Sequence record: NC_028881.1
Origin: Escherichia phage vb_EcoM-VR5
Length of the DNA: 64,000 bases
Strand: one strand, 5' to 3'
The notes under the pieces were generated by a model, which saw nothing but the letters and a program-made list of their open reading frames with translations, was not told the DNA's origin and made no database searches. Below are positions 3,942 to 62,587 of the stretch, one piece after another (the stretch's first letter is position 1; every line of letters begins with the position of its first letter). The position numbers and the translations under genes were made by a program.

Positions 3942-4017
3942 TGGTCGAGACAGTAGGGATCGAACCTACGACCTAGGACTTAGAAGGTCCTTGCTCTTCC
4001 TTCTGAGCTATGCCTCG
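3942..4017 (-). tRNA. tRNA-Arg (anticodon UCU), CCA encoded
   Basis: Manual cloverleaf: acceptor CGAGGCA/TGTCTCG, D-stem GCTC/GAGC, anticodon stem AGGAC/GTCCT with loop CTTCTAA, T-arm GTAGG-TTCGATC-CCTAC, 3' ACCA. Confidence 0.8.
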
Positions 4018-4151: not shown

Positions 4152-4225
4152 TGGTGGCCCTGGGTGGAATCGAACCACCATCCAGCGATTATGAGTCGCT
4201 CGCTTGACCGTCCAGCTACAGGGCC
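4152..4225 (-). tRNA. tRNA with anticodon CAU (Met or lysidine-modified Ile), CCA encoded
   Basis: Acceptor GGCCCTG/CAGGGCC (perfect 7 bp), anticodon stem AGCGA/TCGCT with loop CTCATAA, T-arm GGTGG-TTCGATT-CCACC, 3' ACCA. Confidence 0.75.
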
Positions 4226-9678: not shown

Positions 9679-9701
9679 TATAAATATTAATATTATTTAT
9701 A
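9679..9701. promoter_or_regulatory. Divergent late promoters: TATAAATA plus-strand 9679-9686 (gene 53) and minus-strand 9694-9701 (gene 4)
   Basis: Exact octamers about 27 nt upstream of each ATG. Confidence 0.65.
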
Positions 9702-39687: not shown

Positions 39688-40968
39688 ATGGCAAAGATTA
39701 ACGAATTACTGCGCGAGTCAACAACTACTACCAGCAACTCATTGGGTCGCCCTAATCTTGTTGCTTTGACCCGTGCTACCACTAAACTAATTTATCGCGA
39801 TATCATCGCTGAACAGCGTACAAACCAGCCTATCGCTGCGTTATACGGTGTCAAATACCTTACCCCTGATAATGAATTTAGCTTCCAGACCGGTGCTACT
39901 TACGGTGGTGAAGTTGGTTCTAAAGACCGTGAAACTATCCCAGAATTAACAGATAAGTCCCAGGCTATTGCCAAGGGTGGCTACTTTAAGTATCAGAATG
40001 TGGTTTATAAGGCTTTGGTTGCAAGCCCACTCGCATCTACTAGCGCCATAGATTTGTCTGATGCTCTCCAAGAAGGTTTGGTGTCATTAACTTGCCGTCT
40101 TGTCCCTGATGCAGCTCATACCGAGAAATTCGAAGCTGGAGATGTTGAAATTAGTAATGCCGTGTTCCAGGTCAATAAATGGAACGCACCAGTTAAATCT
40201 CGTAAGCTGAAAACGGCTTTGACTGTAGAACTAGCCCAGGATATGGAATCTAATGGCTTTGATGCTCCAGCATTCCTTGAAGACCTCCTGGCTACAGTAA
40301 TGGCCGATGAAATTAACAAAGATGTTCTGCAGTCATTGATTACCGTATCTAAACGTTATAAAGTTACTGGTGTTTCTGATAACGGTATTATCGACCTTTC
40401 TTATGACTCTGCACCAGAATCTGCTCGTAAGCTGTACGAAATGGTTTGTGAAATGAATTCCGAAATCCAGAAAACAACTTCTTATTCCGCTACATTTGTT
40501 GTAGCTTCTTCACGTGTTGCTGCTATGCTTGCTGGTTCAGGTTGGTTAAAACACAAGCCGGAAGATGAGGCTTGGCTCCCGGAAACCGCGTATGGTTATT
40601 TGATTAATGGCTTACCTGTGTTCTGTGATGTGAATAGTCCATTGGATTATGTTACCGTAGGCGTTAAAGAAAACTATGGTGGTAATGAAGTTGTTGGTTC
40701 TATTTTCTATGCGCCGTATACTGAAGGCCTAGATTTAGATGATGAAGAACACGTCGGTGCTTATAAGGTAATTGTCGACCCAGACAGTTTACAACCTTCT
40801 ATTTCTCTGATGGTTCGTTATGCGTTGTCTGCCAACCCTTATACCGTAGCCAAAGATGATAAAGAAGCCCGTGTTATCGATGCAACTAATATGGACTTGA
40901 TGGCGGGCCAGAGCAATATGTCTTATCTGCTTGGTGTTAAATTGCCTAAAATAATTTATGAGGCGTAA
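39688..40968 (+). CDS. 24: gp24 capsid vertex protein (copy 1)
   Basis: 426 aa; gp23-related fold; position after gene 23. Confidence 0.9.
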   Translation: MAKINELLRESTTTTSNSLGRPNLVALTRATTKLIYRDIIAEQRTNQPIAALYGVKYLTPDNEFSFQTGATYGGEVGSKDRETIPELTDKSQAIAKGGYFKYQNVVYKALVASPLASTSAIDLSDALQEGLVSLTCRLVPDAAHTEKFEAGDVEISNAVFQVNKWNAPVKSRKLKTALTVELAQDMESNGFDAPAFLEDLLATVMADEINKDVLQSLITVSKRYKVTGVSDNGIIDLSYDSAPESARKLYEMVCEMNSEIQKTTSYSATFVVASSRVAAMLAGSGWLKHKPEDEAWLPETAYGYLINGLPVFCDVNSPLDYVTVGVKENYGGNEVVGSIFYAPYTEGLDLDDEEHVGAYKVIVDPDSLQPSISLMVRYALSANPYTVAKDDKEARVIDATNMDLMAGQSNMSYLLGVKLPKIIYEA

Positions 40969-42249
40969 ATGCAAAAGATTAACGCACTAATCCATGAATC
41001 AACTCTGACGGCGGCCAACTCGGTCGCTCGTCCTACTCTTCTCTCATATACTAAAGCTACTAACAAACGTATCTTTAAATCACTTGTAGCCGAACAAAAG
41101 ACACGCCAGCCTGTGGCGGCGCTTTATGGTATTCGTGTTCTGAACCCAGCAGATAAAATGACTTATCTTGGCGGCGCAACGTTTGCTGGTGAAATTGGTA
41201 TGTTTGAACGTTCTCAGATTCCAGAGGTAGTAGGTCCTAATGAAGCTTATGTCGTCGGTGATATGTTCCAATTTGAAAATGTTGTTTTCAAAGTACTAGA
41301 AGCATCTCCTTTCGCCGGTACAGCCGAAACTGAGATGGGTGAAGTTATTTCTGAAGCTATTGCTGCTGGTCATATTCGTATGGTTTCTGATGCGGCTCAG
41401 ACTTCTAAATTTGAAAAAGGTCATCCTGAGATTGCCGAAGCCGGATTCCGTATCGATAAATGGCAGACTGAAGTTAAATCTCGTAAGTTAAAAACTTCAT
41501 TAACTGTAGAACTAGCCCAAGACCTAGAATCCAATGGATTCAATGCCCCAGGATTTATCGAAGATATTCTTGGAATCCAGATGGCAGAGGAAATTAATAA
41601 GGACGTACTTCAGTCATTGATTACTGTAAGTTCCCGTTTTAAAGTCCAAGGTGTTTCTGAAAAAGGTGTTCTTAACCTTACAGACCCACAGTATGATAAT
41701 GCCCAAGACCGAGCTCGTACATTGTATTATTATATGTGTGAAATGAACTCAGCGGTCCAACGTAATACATCATTCGCTGGTACATATGCCGTAGCTAGTT
41801 CCCGTTGTGCCGCTATTCTTGCCGCGTCCGGCTGGGTCGAGAAAAAAGATGACCAAGACGAATTAGCTTATGGTGTTCTGAAGAACGGTCTACCACTTTA
41901 TGCTGATGTGAATAGTCCGTGTGATTATGTTATCGTCGGTGTGAATGCAGATATTGGTGAAGGACAGACGGTCGCATCTTTGTACTATGCGCCTTATGTG
42001 GAAGGCCTGGACAACGTAGATGATGAGGGTGATACTTCTGTAGGTGAATTCAAGGTTATCGTTGACCCTGAAAGCTTACAGCCTACCGTCGCCTTGTTGG
42101 CTCGATATGCACTGACAGCAAACCCGTATACCGTTGCCAAAGATGATAAAGAAGCTCGTATTATTGATGGGTCCGATATGGATAAGATGGCTAACCAAAG
42201 TCAATTGAGTTCTTATCTTGGTGTTAAACTTCCACCACTAGAAAAATAA
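40969..42249 (+). CDS. gp24 paralog (copy 2), tandem duplicate
   Basis: 426 aa; clearly homologous to copy 1 along the whole length but substantially diverged (shared blocks WQTEVKSRKLKT, TVELAQDLESNGF, ANPYTVAKDDKEAR). Confidence 0.85.
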   Translation: MQKINALIHESTLTAANSVARPTLLSYTKATNKRIFKSLVAEQKTRQPVAALYGIRVLNPADKMTYLGGATFAGEIGMFERSQIPEVVGPNEAYVVGDMFQFENVVFKVLEASPFAGTAETEMGEVISEAIAAGHIRMVSDAAQTSKFEKGHPEIAEAGFRIDKWQTEVKSRKLKTSLTVELAQDLESNGFNAPGFIEDILGIQMAEEINKDVLQSLITVSSRFKVQGVSEKGVLNLTDPQYDNAQDRARTLYYYMCEMNSAVQRNTSFAGTYAVASSRCAAILAASGWVEKKDDQDELAYGVLKNGLPLYADVNSPCDYVIVGVNADIGEGQTVASLYYAPYVEGLDNVDDEGDTSVGEFKVIVDPESLQPTVALLARYALTANPYTVAKDDKEARIIDGSDMDKMANQSQLSSYLGVKLPPLEK

Positions 42250-57834: not shown

Positions 57835-57840
57835 CAAAAA

Positions 57841-57860
57841 AGGAGAGCGTATGCTCTCCT
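57841..57860. terminator. Bidirectional terminator after gene 54
   Basis: AGGAGAGC-GTAT-GCTCTCCT hairpin flanked by A-run and T-rich tract. Confidence 0.6.
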
Positions 57861-57868
57861 TTAGGGGT

Positions 57869-58159
57869 TTACTTACGGAACGAAATGAAACCTGCTGCAG
57901 TCATTAAGGGTTGCTTTTTAACAAATACAGTAACTGAAATAGGAGCTTCGGATTCAAGCTGACCTGTCACTACACCATTAAAGATGTTTTCGGTTTGCTC
58001 AGGTTGTGAAAAATTTTCAACCGGGCGTAAGTCGAACTGCTTGTCTTCACCGAAAACACGACGTAATTCATTACCTACTGCACTGTCGAACTCTTCAGAA
58101 GCCGGGATAACGTTTTCAACTACCAGTTCTTGACCATTAAAGCGGAATGATGATTTCAT
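57869..58159 (-). CDS. Hypothetical early protein (96 aa)
   Basis: ORF with AGGAGA ribosome-binding site; early promoter P6 upstream. Confidence 0.5.
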   Translation of the reverse strand: MKSSFRFNGQELVVENVIPASEEFDSAVGNELRRVFGEDKQFDLRPVENFSQPEQTENIFNGVVTGQLESEAPISVTVFVKKQPLMTAAGFISFRK

Positions 58160-58219: not shown

Positions 58220-60268
58220 TTATCTGAATTTTTCCGGAAGGGCATTGATATCAGTCAATGCACACAGGATTTTATCAACTTCGTTATCTGAAGCTTCTTT
58301 AGATTCTGTAAGGAACCCAGAGAAAGATAATGTTTTGTTTACTGGTTCCAACTTACCGGATTCCAAGAACAAATCACCGTCGTAAACTACTTCGCTTTCG
58401 GCGACGATACGGTCCAGGTCCATTACTTCACACTCTAACAAGAAACGGTTAAAGGATTTAGACAGGCTAGCCGTAGTGGTCTTGTTAACTCGCAGTGTAG
58501 TACCACGTGGCAACAGAACTTCAGCCTCTTCAGGGTATTCAGACAAACTACCTGGCATAATAACCTTAATCTTCTCAATACCACGAATAACAAATGAGAT
58601 ATCAATCTTAGAATTACCTTCGGTTTTCAGTGCATTAGTTACTGTCTGGTTAGCATCTTGTGAACGCCAATCATCAGAGAATGCATGACCATCAGTATAA
58701 GTAGACGAGAAGTCATCTAATGTGATACCCATACCATTGCCGGACATTTGTCCAGGAACGTTACTAAAAATGTTAGGCTTCAACGAAGTAGAAACATAGT
58801 TACGGAAGTAGAATGTACGGCCTGTAATATTGCGACGAAGAGTATTAGAATCACCACCCTGACCACGATAAACCGTAGTACCCTTAGGCAAAGTTACACC
58901 TTTAGAGAACGCGCTATCAAGTTTCTCAATTTCACCTTCAACAAACTTAATGGAAGTATCCTCATCAGGAGTACCAAGCAAGAACGTGTTAATATCATAG
59001 AACGAGTTCATACAATATTCTGATACAGCCTGTTTTTCTTCCTTGGTAAGGTCTGCTTCTGGTTCAACGTTCTGGGCCACTTCATACGAATTGGTAAAAA
59101 CATCATCAATCATCTGAGTAATAATAGCCATAGGACGTTGAAGAGCCTGGGCCTTAACATCTACATCTACCGAAGAACCTGCAGTAATTTCACGAACAAT
59201 TCTTTGCATGATTTCGTACGAGTTTGTAGTATCAAGATTTTTAAATTCTTCAGCCATCAATCTAACGATGTCAGAAGGGTAATTTCTGGTACGTAGCTTA
59301 CCTTTAGCTTCGGATAATGCATCCATTAAAGAAGATACTTGAGGTGATAAACCGGAACTAGACGAAATATTAATATAAGCCAATTCAGATTGGGTTTTCT
59401 TAGCAAAGGTCTTCATAGAGGCTTCAAATGATTCGAATTCTTTAGATTTCTTACCATCTGATTTATATAAAGGAACTTCGTCATCATACTTAGCAAAGAT
59501 TTTAGCAGTCTCTGCATCGGCCTCAATATTTTCAGGAGTAACTGCGTATTGAGCCGCAATAGTAGCACGAACGTTTAATTTAGTACGAGAGATAACAGCC
59601 TTATCGGTACGCTTTTCTTCAACCTGCGCTACAGAAGCTACAACGGCTTCAACCTTACTTACGGCTTGGCCAGTTTTCTTGGAAACATAAACTTCGCCAA
59701 CTTTAGAATCAACTTTAGTATAAAGGTCAGCATCAATTTCCGGCATGCCTTTGATGTCTTCGATATTCGCACCACGACGTACTAAAAGAACGTAAGTATG
59801 TTTACCGCTGAACTGGAACATATCATTAACAACTTTAAACTTACCACCTGTACGAGCCATGGCCAAACGAGCCAATACACGTTGTACAGTAGGACCCTTA
59901 CCTTTCATTTTCTTAGTAGGGAAACGGAACAGAACTGCATCCATTTTAAGTTTATTTACTTGTTCATATACCGTATCGAAAATAGTATTCAATGCACCAA
60001 GTGGGTCAGAACCAAGTCCACCTTTGAGTTCAGCCGGGGCACCTTTGCTTGACAAACTCATTAGAATAACATGAACATATTTGTCACCTGGCTTAACCAT
60101 TTTAACTGCGTCTCCTTGAGACGCATAAGATACCATACGAGCCACAAGGTTATCATTACCTGGTGCTTGGATAGAGAAAATCTGTGGGATACCGGAACCT
60201 GGTTTAAGATTTGTTACTGGATAGTTTTTAGCTGAATCACTATCAAAAACTTCGTTTAAATTTTCCAT
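58220..60268 (-). CDS. alt: Alt-like ADP-ribosyltransferase (packaged head protein), copy 1
   Basis: 682 aa (same length as T4 Alt); N-terminal L-x-E motif; ADP-ribosyltransferase-type Arg / STS / Glu motifs (FYFRNYVSTSLKPNIF). Confidence 0.85.
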   Translation of the reverse strand: MENLNEVFDSDSAKNYPVTNLKPGSGIPQIFSIQAPGNDNLVARMVSYASQGDAVKMVKPGDKYVHVILMSLSSKGAPAELKGGLGSDPLGALNTIFDTVYEQVNKLKMDAVLFRFPTKKMKGKGPTVQRVLARLAMARTGGKFKVVNDMFQFSGKHTYVLLVRRGANIEDIKGMPEIDADLYTKVDSKVGEVYVSKKTGQAVSKVEAVVASVAQVEEKRTDKAVISRTKLNVRATIAAQYAVTPENIEADAETAKIFAKYDDEVPLYKSDGKKSKEFESFEASMKTFAKKTQSELAYINISSSSGLSPQVSSLMDALSEAKGKLRTRNYPSDIVRLMAEEFKNLDTTNSYEIMQRIVREITAGSSVDVDVKAQALQRPMAIITQMIDDVFTNSYEVAQNVEPEADLTKEEKQAVSEYCMNSFYDINTFLLGTPDEDTSIKFVEGEIEKLDSAFSKGVTLPKGTTVYRGQGGDSNTLRRNITGRTFYFRNYVSTSLKPNIFSNVPGQMSGNGMGITLDDFSSTYTDGHAFSDDWRSQDANQTVTNALKTEGNSKIDISFVIRGIEKIKVIMPGSLSEYPEEAEVLLPRGTTLRVNKTTTASLSKSFNRFLLECEVMDLDRIVAESEVVYDGDLFLESGKLEPVNKTLSFSGFLTESKEASDNEVDKILCALTDINALPEKFR

Positions 60269-60271
60269 TAT

Positions 60272-62326
60272 TTACCCTTGGATGAATTTTTCTGGCATAT
60301 CATTAAGATTCATACATGATGCTAAAAGAGGTAGTACATCAAACTTAGTTGATTTTACAAATGAGTCAAAAGATACAGGGTTTTCGGTAGTATCGAAATC
60401 ATCTTGATACACAACCAATTCACCGGTTTCCATTAACATGTTTCCATCATATACTACTGACTCTTGAAGCTCATCTGATGTCATAACTTCGGCTTGAACT
60501 AATTTATTATTAGTTTTAGAAGTACCGTCGTTATAAGAAGCATCTGTTATTTTATTAATTTTGAGCATTAACCCACGTGGAAGAATAATTTCCATTTCGT
60601 TAGAAGGAGCAAGACCTGCACCAGGGAACACCACGTTTATTTTGTGAGCACCTGAAATAGCCCAACCGATACCAACTTGGTCGTCATTAGACTTAACAAG
60701 TCCTTCATCCGATTTGTCTATGGAAACATCTAAACGGACTTCATCAGGCAGAGTACCTACTGAAGCATCTGTCATCCAAGTACCAAAAATATTAGGATAT
60801 AAAGATGTAGATACAAAGTTTCTGAAATAGAATACCTTGTTTTTAACCATTGCTTCGTAAATAGGTGGAATCATTTTCTGGGAACGATACAGTGTAATTC
60901 CTTCTGGTAATCTATCACCATTTTTAAAAGCATCATCTAAGTTATCAATAGCTTTTTCGATTTCCGGGCCAGTCAAAATACTAGAACGAACTTCTGGATT
61001 GTATATACCTAAAAGTGCATTGTTCATATCTTCATAACCGGAACCAACATACTCACGGATACCACGTTTTTGTGCTGGAGTATACTGGGTTTCATCTCGG
61101 TTATCAACAATAGAGAACATTGTCCAACCGGCAGCCAATGCAAATCCACGAATTTCTTTTTTAATGACCTTAGTCTTAGCGACGTTCCAAGAGCTTTCAG
61201 ACAATTCCATGGCTACAGTATAATCTAAATTAGAATGTTTAGCAAAGAATTTTCCTAACCAGGCACCTTTATATTCTTCAAGAACTTCGTTTAGTACTGA
61301 AGCAAAACTGCTTAATGCATCCATAGACGTTATAGGCTTACCGTGGATTTTTTGGAATGCACGAACTTTAACATCATGGTCGACTTCTTTTATTTTGCTT
61401 TTAGTTACTATTCCGCTATCGGCAAAGGCATCACCAACACCATTTATATTTGTAACTGTATTAAGAACACTTTCTAAAGAAAACGATGCGGTAGAAATAG
61501 TAGATAATTCGTTAGATTGTGGAATAAGTGGCGCGGTAGCAGGTTTACTTAATTCGGATGCAGAAGCTTCAAATTTGGTAAACATAGGTGTTTCAAAACG
61601 CGCTGATTCTAAGGATTGCGACATAGCAATAGCACGTCGTGAAATCTTGGTCTTAGTAATAACGGTTTTATCTGTACGGCGTTCTTCAACCTTAGCAATA
61701 CTACCTGCAATAGCGGTTTCTTTAGTAACCTGTACACCTTCTTTTTTGCTTACATAAACATCACCAACATCAGAATCAACTTTAGTATAAAGTTCAGCAT
61801 TAATTTCTGGAATACCTTTGATGTCTTCAATATTAGCTTGTTTACGGACAACTAAAATATAAGTATGCTTGCCAGTGAATTCATACATGGCAGGAACTAC
61901 TTTAAAACGGCCACCAGTTTTCTGTGCAACTAAACGTTGAATAAGGCGCTGTACGATAGGACCTTGTCCTTTCATTTTCTTAGTAGGAAAACGGAACATA
62001 ACCGCGTCCATACGAAGTTTTTTAACTTGCTCGTATACTACATCAAAAATGGTATTAATAGCATCAATAGGAGTTGCTCCTAAGCCACCTTTTAATTCGG
62101 CAGGGGCGCCTTTGGCTGACAGACTCATTAAAATAACGTGAGCATATTTGTCGCCTAATTTAACTTGTTTGATAGCATCACCTTCAGATGAATATGACAC
62201 CATACGTGCTACCAATTGAGACTCAACGCCGCCAATCTTCCAAATCTGTGGTACTTTAAGTTTCGGGTTCAAGTTTACAGTAGGTAATGTACCTTCAGAC
62301 TCGAACACTTCATTTAATTGGGTCAT
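60272..62326 (-). CDS. Alt-like ADP-ribosyltransferase paralog, copy 2
   Basis: 684 aa; first ~200 aa well conserved with copy 1, central region diverged; STS motif FYFRNFVSTSLYPNIF retained. Confidence 0.85.
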   Translation of the reverse strand: MTQLNEVFESEGTLPTVNLNPKLKVPQIWKIGGVESQLVARMVSYSSEGDAIKQVKLGDKYAHVILMSLSAKGAPAELKGGLGATPIDAINTIFDVVYEQVKKLRMDAVMFRFPTKKMKGQGPIVQRLIQRLVAQKTGGRFKVVPAMYEFTGKHTYILVVRKQANIEDIKGIPEINAELYTKVDSDVGDVYVSKKEGVQVTKETAIAGSIAKVEERRTDKTVITKTKISRRAIAMSQSLESARFETPMFTKFEASASELSKPATAPLIPQSNELSTISTASFSLESVLNTVTNINGVGDAFADSGIVTKSKIKEVDHDVKVRAFQKIHGKPITSMDALSSFASVLNEVLEEYKGAWLGKFFAKHSNLDYTVAMELSESSWNVAKTKVIKKEIRGFALAAGWTMFSIVDNRDETQYTPAQKRGIREYVGSGYEDMNNALLGIYNPEVRSSILTGPEIEKAIDNLDDAFKNGDRLPEGITLYRSQKMIPPIYEAMVKNKVFYFRNFVSTSLYPNIFGTWMTDASVGTLPDEVRLDVSIDKSDEGLVKSNDDQVGIGWAISGAHKINVVFPGAGLAPSNEMEIILPRGLMLKINKITDASYNDGTSKTNNKLVQAEVMTSDELQESVVYDGNMLMETGELVVYQDDFDTTENPVSFDSFVKSTKFDVLPLLASCMNLNDMPEKFIQG

Positions 62327-62360
62327 AATAATTCCTCTCTAATAACCTTATTTATGCCAT

Positions 62361-62378
62361 AAAGGGCCCGAAGGCCCA
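62361..62378 (-). terminator. Stem-loop terminator
   Basis: AAAGGGCC-CGAA-GGCCC hairpin between the 62381 gene and alt copy 2. Confidence 0.45.
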
Positions 62379-62380
62379 TA

Positions 62381-62587
62381 TCAGTATAGTGGAACAATAG
62401 GGACTAAAGTTCGATATAGCTCGAAATTATATCCTTTTTCATATTTTGATAACTTTCCTGCAAATACTTCAAACTCATCACGCGAGTTGAAATCAAGGAT
62501 AGTCGTTGTTACAGAGGTAGAAACTTCACCAGAGCCGTTACCACCTTGACGTTGTGCAATAATAACTAATTCTAAATAAGCTTTCAT
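62381..62587 (-). CDS. Hypothetical small protein
   Basis: ORF 62381..62653; start assigned to MKAYLEL at 62587, immediately after the ligase stop. Confidence 0.45.
   Translation of the reverse strand: MKAYLELVIIAQRQGGNGSGEVSTSVTTTILDFNSRDEFEVFAGKLSKYEKGYNFELYRTLVPIVPLY

Follow-up and report, generated by a model that had tools for sequence, protein, structure and literature searches.

Tandem Alt-like ADP-ribosyltransferase genes of Escherichia phage vB_EcoM-VR5: a conserved N-terminal module joined to two divergent catalytic segments

The window analyzed here is a stretch of 64,000 nucleotides from Escherichia phage vB_EcoM-VR5 (NC_028881.1), a phage of the recognised species Dhakavirus vr5, and the subject of this report is a pair of adjacent minus-strand genes toward its end, altA and altB, separated by 3 nucleotides. 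As judged from their sequences, both genes encode Alt-type ADP-ribosyltransferases (ARTs). An exact-sequence look-up identified AltA with YP_009205892.1 / AIZ01985.1 and AltB with YP_009205891.1 / AIZ01984.1 of Escherichia phage vB_EcoM-VR5, and RefSeq names both proteins "Alt-like RNA polymerase ADP-ribosyltransferase". On the minus strand between 57.8 and 64.0 kb the genes are arranged in the order gp30 DNA ligase (which runs past the end of the window), alt.1, altA, altB and alt.-3, and the plus strand holds genes 54, 48 and 29, convergent to the alt block. The order ligase-alt.1-altA-altB-alt.-3-54 is common to JS98, T2, T4 and one metagenome contig, the second copy in T4 being only a remnant. 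The tandem pair is a known, conserved feature of the Tevenvirinae, and its genes and their arrangement are already annotated, since the same two genes are termed altb and alta in JS98, JS10 and IME08 and alt and alt' in Bp7, the corresponding T2 locus contains two full-length alt genes in tandem (YP_010073851.1 and YP_010073850.1), and a note in the T4 record states that alt.-1/alt.-2 "reflect an old duplication of the first part of gene alt".

Full-length matches to the Alt-like family PHROG 802 were obtained for both proteins (AltB, E=2.1e-224, residues 1-681; AltA, E=4.2e-253, residues 1-683), and both match Pfam PF03496 (ADPrib_exo_Tox) with scores of 80.8 bits for AltB and 109.1 bits for AltA against a gathering cut-off of 23.4. 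The N-terminal module (N-module) family PF26846 (Tevenvirinae_ADPRT) is carried by relatives that are 79-93% identical over the C-terminal half, and AltA and AltB are assigned to it via these relatives. An original prediction, made from the letters of the window, had placed two adjacent Alt-type ART genes here, and its coordinates, lengths and motifs are correct. End-to-end alignment of AltA with AltB by BLASTP gives 413 bits, E=1e-139 and 38% identity overall, and this identity is unevenly distributed. With segment bounds set in AltB numbering, it amounts to 66% over the N-module (residues 1-235), 11% over the middle region (236-405), 38% over the ART domain (406-620) and 32% over the tail (621-682). 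The predicted contrast between a conserved stretch of ~200 N-terminal residues and a diverged center and C-terminus is therefore confirmed, as are the N-terminal L-x-E motif, found as L4-N5-E6 in both copies, and the retention of FRN(Y/F)VSTS. Each precursor of ~76 kDa would consist of five parts, namely a propeptide ending in L-N-E, an N-module of ~230 residues, a variable helical middle region, the ART domain and a tail of ~60 residues. The features of the locus are summarized in Table 1.

Table 1. Genes, protein segments and putative expression signals of the alt locus in the VR5 window (aa, amino acids; nt, nucleotides)
Feature	Position	Strand	Description
altA-position gene	60272-62326	minus	684 aa; adjoins alt.1 and DNA ligase; T4-Alt-type catalytic cassette; Alt-like ADP-ribosyltransferase
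altB-position gene	58220-60268	minus	682 aa; adjoins alt.-3 and gene 54; rare C-terminal cassette; Alt-like ADP-ribosyltransferase
AltA N-module, residues 1-233	61628-62326	minus	includes propeptide MTQLNE; 93% identical to JS98 alta
AltA ART domain, residues 378-616 (PF03496 match)	60479-61195	minus	R481, S506-T507-S508, E577-M-E579
AltB N-module, residues 1-235	59564-60268	minus	includes 6-residue propeptide MENLNE; 94% identical to JS98 altb
AltB middle region, residues 236-405	59054-59563	minus	all-helical in the model
AltB ART domain, residues 406-620	58409-59053	minus	R468, S493-T494-S495, E581-A-E583
AltB tail, residues 621-682 and stop	58220-58408	minus	V622-A623-E624, then YDGD, terminal P-E-K-F
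alt.1 homolog	62381-62587	minus	68 aa; PF24647 'Phage blade protein'; conserved upstream neighbor
alt.-3 homolog	57869-58159	minus	96 aa; DUF5498; conserved downstream neighbor
Hairpin GGGCCTTCGGGCCC (62377-62364), then CATAAATA (62356-62349)	62349-62377	minus	~22 nt upstream of the altA ATG
Terminator-like hairpin and T-run	57839-57862	minus	after alt.-3; probable end of the altA-altB-alt.-3 transcript

Comparison with related phages indicates that the segments of the two proteins have different histories. The N-modules of AltA and AltB are 93% and 94% identical, respectively, to their positional counterparts in JS98 (Table 1), while any Dhakavirus N-module compared with any T-even N-module, of either type, gives 40-46% identity; within one genome, the two N-modules of the T2 pair are 67-68% identical, similar to the value for the VR5 pair. 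The middle region of AltB is only 20% identical to that of JS98 altb, and its ART domain is 40% identical to that of JS98 altb and 36-42% identical to every other reference. The ART domain of AltA shares 59% identity with JS98 alta versus 80% with T4 Alt, and its middle region 33% versus 50%. At the nucleotide level, the DNA flanking the pair is 92-93% identical to Dhakavirus phage JS98, and the similarity to JS98 is lost abruptly at 58232-59579 (AltB residues ~230-679) and at 60953-61625 (the AltA middle region); T4 alt DNA aligns over 60413-61828. Such an abrupt loss between flanks of 92-93% identity points to replacement of cassettes rather than to gradual drift. The composition profile shows no discontinuity in guanine-plus-cytosine content at the cassette borders, and thus no sign of a foreign origin.

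The same mosaicism is seen across the family. An alignment of 57 proteins contains pairs with an N-module identity of at least 85% and an ART identity of at most 45%, as well as 62 pairs in which the N-modules are at most 50% and the ART domains at least 70% identical; AltB and P0039, for example, are 89% identical in the N-module, 9% in the middle region and 37% in the ART domain. In single-linkage clusters, the Dhakavirus-type N-module occurs with at least seven ART clusters and the T-even type with four, and three ART clusters sit on more than one N-module cluster. JS98 altb and the downstream alt gene of T2 are 45% identical in the middle region and 59% in the ART domain, compared with 13-18% and 34-39%, respectively, to A-type parts. 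As B-type cassettes group across genera in this manner, the duplication is read as old: altA and altB are read from these sequence comparisons as an old paralog pair, in which the N-modules follow the phage lineage and the middle and ART cassettes have been exchanged between lineages. Either gene conversion or joint adaptation to a shared prohead core would then keep the N-modules of one genome similar.

Loss of catalytic residues in one copy, which the original prediction had raised as a possibility that would speak against it, was looked for, and the full R/STS/ExE set is present in both proteins (Table 1). The retained motif is FYFRNYVSTS at residues 486-495 in AltB and FYFRNFVSTS at residues 499-508 in AltA. 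Positions R468, F488, N490, S493, S495, E581, E583 and P587-R588-G589, in AltB numbering, are invariant across the 57 family members. Because neither copy has lost catalytic residues, both AltA and AltB are predicted to be catalytically active. The importance of the ExE glutamate is illustrated by T4 Alt, in which a mutant called E577A is inactive (PMC11404850). We also note that the ExE motif of the T4 GT7 sequence corresponds to E574-M-E576, in a numbering that agrees with the published ITE-6 and LTE-619 sites, and the name of the mutant is apparently off by one relative to the T4 sequence.

An AlphaFold2 model of AltB, built on the 57-sequence alignment, has a mean predicted local distance difference test score (pLDDT) of 76.8 and a predicted template-modelling score (pTM) of 0.69. 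The model consists of an alpha/beta N-module (~18-200), linker helices, an all-helical middle region (250-400) and an ART core, in which strand 466-473 contains R468, strand 492-495 contains STS, and ExE immediately precedes strand 583-586. Comparison of the model with the PDB by Foldseek returned 79 matches with E of at most 0.001 and target-normalised template-modelling scores of up to 0.63. The best 50 of these 79 matches are all R-S-E toxins, including Vis, Certhrax, C3 exoenzymes (C3bot), CDTa, iota, C2-I and VIP2, and the top matches have E values of 4e-7 to 5e-5. The structure prediction that had been proposed as a check thus yields an ART core in AltB, with a fold that matches C3/Vis/VIP2-type toxins. 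A single-sequence search with AltA against PDB sequences found nothing, and the kinship with toxins emerged by fold comparison only. An E-x-E rather than a Q-x-E motif is the signature of arginine-specific C3-like ARTs, and both AltA and AltB would be arginine-specific.

The processing of T4 Alt provides the frame in which the termini of the VR5 proteins can be considered. T4 Alt is cut by the protease gp21 at ITE-6 and LTE-619, whereby 63 C-terminal residues are removed (PMC5694885); about 40 copies are present per head and are ejected into the host (PMC9026906), and the injected protein modifies RNA polymerase (PMC10468400). The corresponding N-termini are MENLNE/VFDS in AltB and MTQLNE/VFES in AltA, where the slash follows Glu6. 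E6 is conserved in at least 90% of the 57 aligned sequences and without exception in two N-module alignments (56 and 18 sequences), and F8 is nearly invariant in all three alignments. At the other end, E619 of T4 aligns with a column of invariant glutamate in the 57 sequences, which corresponds to E624 in AltB, and AltA possesses a canonical candidate site, L620-Q621-E622. In the AltB model the site falls in a low-confidence linker (623-626), which is consistent with access of the protease. The residues Y629-D630-G631-D632 (YDGD) are strongly conserved right after the cleavage glutamate, within the would-be removed propeptide (58220-58396 for AltB; residues 623-684 of AltA), and F681 of the tail is near-invariant, so that the tail, which gp21 removes from T4 Alt, holds some of the most conserved positions of the family.

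By analogy with T4 Alt, we infer late expression, packaging, cleavage and injection of the VR5 pair, as well as its arginine specificity and its substrates, and the diversified substrate specificity suggested by the original prediction is putative in the same way. Both proteins would be made late and built into the prohead core. The gp21 protease would probably trim both after Glu6, and possibly also at the glutamate aligned with LTE-619 of T4. Transported in the head, both would leave it together with the DNA and immediately ADP-ribosylate arginines of host proteins at the expense of NAD+.

The element ahead of altA (Table 1) can be aligned base for base with its counterparts in T4 and T2, where a hairpin and the late promoter motif TATAAATA precede alt. 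T4, T2, JS98, the metagenome contig and VR5 all have, before the first alt gene, a GGCCTTCGGGCC hairpin whose loop is UUCG and, directly after it, C/TATAAATA; C occupies the first promoter position in all Dhakavirus-type sequences (JS98, metagenome contig and VR5). Just upstream of the altB start, which lies 3 nucleotides past the altA stop codon, an AAGGG is present, and the gap between altB and alt.-3 is 60 nucleotides. The simplest reading of this arrangement would be a single late altA-altB-alt.-3 transcript. A scan for sigma-70-like promoters performed no better than shuffled sequences (16 found versus 13.8 expected) and was disregarded. In the window as a whole, TATAAATA occurs 19 times versus 7.8 expected, mostly on the plus strand at 18998-47755, ahead of structural genes. 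Three closely spaced pairs of TATAAATA on opposite strands, at 9679/9694, 47748/47762 and 51633/51637, resemble divergent late promoters.

The C-terminal 447 residues of AltB were searched against ~5.8 billion protein clusters, and only two close cluster representatives were found, all others being at most 39% identical. P0001 is 93% identical and represents a 90%-identity cluster that includes VR5 AltB itself, while P0002 is 79% identical and is encoded on a metagenome contig of 173 kb in which the locus is laid out as in VR5. The best match among 50,697 phage records is 34.6% identical, and the ART cluster of AltB comprises AltB, P0001 and P0002 only. The N-module is likewise restricted in its distribution: its profile matches only 72 clusters (50% identity) among 1.84 billion proteins, mostly of 560-712 residues, so that by sequence it appears essentially confined to the Alt-like family. 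Nearly all of the 72 clusters carry an ART as cargo, with just 2-4 lacking a recognisable one. Four atypical matches lack a Pfam ART match; two of these, P0122 and P0128, appear to be degenerate ARTs, P0121 (1142 residues) contains an ART-like stretch and ~600 extra residues, and P0123 (541 residues) shows no recognisable ART motif. P0121 and P0123 possibly represent other cargo on the same N-module.

A resemblance of the N-module to the GNAT fold was also considered. Conserved glycine loops precede long helices at G84-L-G86-x-x-P89 and K120-x-x-G123 (G123 is invariant), and one of them could correspond to GNAT motif A, Q/R-x-x-G-x-G/A, although neither loop fits this motif in all members. The N-module profile gave no match to PDB sequences at E of at most 10, and 18 N-module members gave no acetyltransferase match in Pfam at the same threshold and no other meaningful Pfam match; with these two scans empty, the GNAT idea is left to structure comparison, where Foldseek with the N-module model returned no significant match. 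No paper linking the N-module to GNAT was found in the literature searched. We therefore treat a GNAT-like fold as a tentative and unproven lead, to which we give somewhat less than an even chance, and GNAT enzymatic activity of the N-module as quite improbable.

The most probable explanation of the locus, in which we have good confidence, is that VR5 carries the Dhakavirus altA/altB pair, encoding injected ARTs that derive from an old duplication and have exchanged their middle and ART cassettes. A few observations sit uneasily with it. The motif upstream of altA is CATAAATA and not the consensus TATAAATA, and an exact TATAAATA was not found between 51645 and 64000, including none to drive altB separately. 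The C-terminal site of AltB reads V622-A623-E624, with valine at P3 rather than leucine, isoleucine or methionine, and the two close relatives of AltB likewise have (I/V)-V-A-E624; with valine at this position, C-terminal trimming of AltB may differ. Finally, AltB residues 506-546, an insert of 41 residues between STS and ExE, are modelled with pLDDT below 50. Since it is here that the two proteins diverge most strongly, in length as well as in sequence, it is plausible that the insert acts as a substrate-recognition element. The disordered insert and the rarity of the AltB cassette could also be taken to indicate that one of the two proteins, with AltB the likelier candidate, lacks enzymatic activity and is a structural core protein or pseudo-enzyme, the more so as T4 Alt has been described with a structural core role besides catalysis (PMC11404850) and some distant family members (P0122 and P0128) look degenerate. 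We hold this to be highly unlikely, as every invariant catalytic position is kept in AltB, its ART domain scores far above the PF03496 cut-off (80.8 versus 23.4 bits) and the model displays a canonical ART core.

The origin of the pair has to be weighed in the same manner. The original prediction had described a duplicated effector, which taken literally means a recent tandem duplication in place followed by rapid divergence of the C-terminal parts. The N-modules of AltA and AltB, 66% identical to each other and only 40-45% to T-even ones, could on their own suggest a duplication within the Dhakavirus lineage, but the N-module of each copy is 93-94% identical to that of the JS98 gene in the same position, the B-type middle and ART parts group across genera and away from the A-type parts, T4 keeps a remnant of a second copy, the ART domain of AltA is 80% identical to that of T4 Alt, and the DNA similarity to JS98 ends abruptly at the cassettes while the flanks stay at 92-93%. 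A recent duplication is therefore very unlikely, and of the earlier claim the duplication stands, as an old paralog pair, whereas a genome-specific duplication diverging in place does not, given the counterparts in JS98, T2 and T4 and the mosaic cassettes. Independent duplications with later capture of cassettes are an alternative to the single old duplication. A different kind of explanation concerns function: if the N-module were a GNAT-fold (acyl-CoA N-acyltransferase) enzyme or a cofactor-binding domain, Alt would be bifunctional rather than a packaging module joined to an ART. We consider this improbable. Returning to the old paralog pair with exchanged cassettes, a more far-reaching version may be formulated, in which the N-module (PF26846) is a portable packaging and ejection module, possibly a repurposed GNAT fold, onto which the Tevenvirinae swap effector cassettes in the way of polymorphic toxins, and in which the rare AltB cassette has a distinct substrate or anti-defence specificity instead of being a redundant modifier of RNA polymerase; this version, taken as a whole, is speculative and in our view rather doubtful.

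Several features of the surroundings deserve mention. Homologs of alt.1 and alt.-3 flank the alt pair in every genome examined, and a 20-kb block of structural genes in the window is ~92% identical to several Dhakavirus phages. A seemingly truncated DNA ligase (an open reading frame of 446 residues) was rejected as such, because the frame runs past the end of the window and matches JS98 gp30. Paralogs of the gp24-type vertex protein are arranged in tandem on the plus strand at 39688-40968 and 40969-42249; they have 426 residues each, are 54% identical and both match PF07068, and the JS98 counterpart of this pair is annotated 24/24b. With the gp24-type pair besides the alt pair, this genus shows more than one case of virion genes duplicated in tandem. 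Genes for tRNA-Arg(TCT) and tRNA-Met(CAT) are located on the minus strand at 3942-4017 and 4152-4225, respectively, as detected by both ARAGORN and Rfam.

With regard to substrates, the best guess for AltA is the alpha subunit of RNA polymerase, because its ART cassette resembles that of T4 Alt (80%), and AltB, with its rare cassette, probably has a substrate set other than that of AltA. A 2025 preprint reports that T4 requires its Alt to evade the Mokosh type I defence and that Alt variants are not interchangeable in this respect, the Bas37 variant being no substitute for it (bioRxiv 10.1101/2025.11.20.689424). This makes defence evasion a credible driver of cassette diversity, and the diversity of tandem alt cassettes may reflect an arms race with host defences, for which VR5 AltA and AltB represent a convenient natural pair. 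Finding an annotated pair again is of modest value alone. What remains of interest is the modular architecture, together with the rare AltB cassette and the GNAT-like lead; the pair offers a clean example of the diversification of an injected effector, in which exchangeable ART cassettes, one of them rare, are joined to an N-module that stays with its lineage.

The closest known system is Alt of T4 (gpAlt, P12726, 682 residues), which shares with the VR5 pair the length class, the five-part layout, the x-x-E6 site and the R/STS/ExE residues, as well as the locus between alt.1/gene 30 and alt.-3/gene 54. AltA is 57% identical to T4 Alt overall and 80% in the ART domain. AltB is more distant, with 33% overall, 42% in the ART domain and 15% in a middle region that looks unrelated. 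T4 differs from VR5 in its N-module, which is only 40-44% identical, and in having one intact alt and the remnant alt.-1/alt.-2 rather than two full genes. JS98 and the other Dhakavirus phages JS10, IME08 and Bp7 have a gene order and orientation identical to those of VR5, while the cassettes of JS98 differ to the extent that DNA similarity is undetectable over both cassette intervals given above. T2 resembles VR5 in its two full-length tandem Alt-like genes at the same locus. In contrast to VR5, its N-modules belong to another lineage (40-45% identity), and its upstream and downstream ART domains are 64% and 41% identical to those of AltA and AltB, respectively.

Outside the alt genes, ModA and ModB of T4 are small proteins (~200 residues) without the Alt N-module. 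Like Alt, they are phage R-S-E ARTs that act on the host transcription and translation machinery (PMC10468400), and they are expressed early inside the cell and are not packaged (PMC10468400, PMC5512222). The bacterial toxins of the C3, Vis, Certhrax, VIP2, iota-Ia and CDTa types have the same catalytic fold as AltB, with the arginine on strand 1, STS on strand 2 and E/Q-x-E in the ADP-ribosylating turn-turn (ARTT) loop. Unlike Alt, the C3/Vis/VIP2-type toxins are only 13-18% identical in sequence, lack the phage N-module and are delivered by secretion or through binary-toxin pores instead of a phage head. Fusion to head-packaged MuF domains is common among phage ARTs (PMC9503650). The Alt N-module differs from these in that it is not MuF, and it had no Pfam or PDB sequence match in the scans described above. 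What Alt has in common with polymorphic toxins and with the MuF-fused, head-packaged effectors is the architecture, a conserved N-terminal module joined to many interchangeable C-terminal cassettes.

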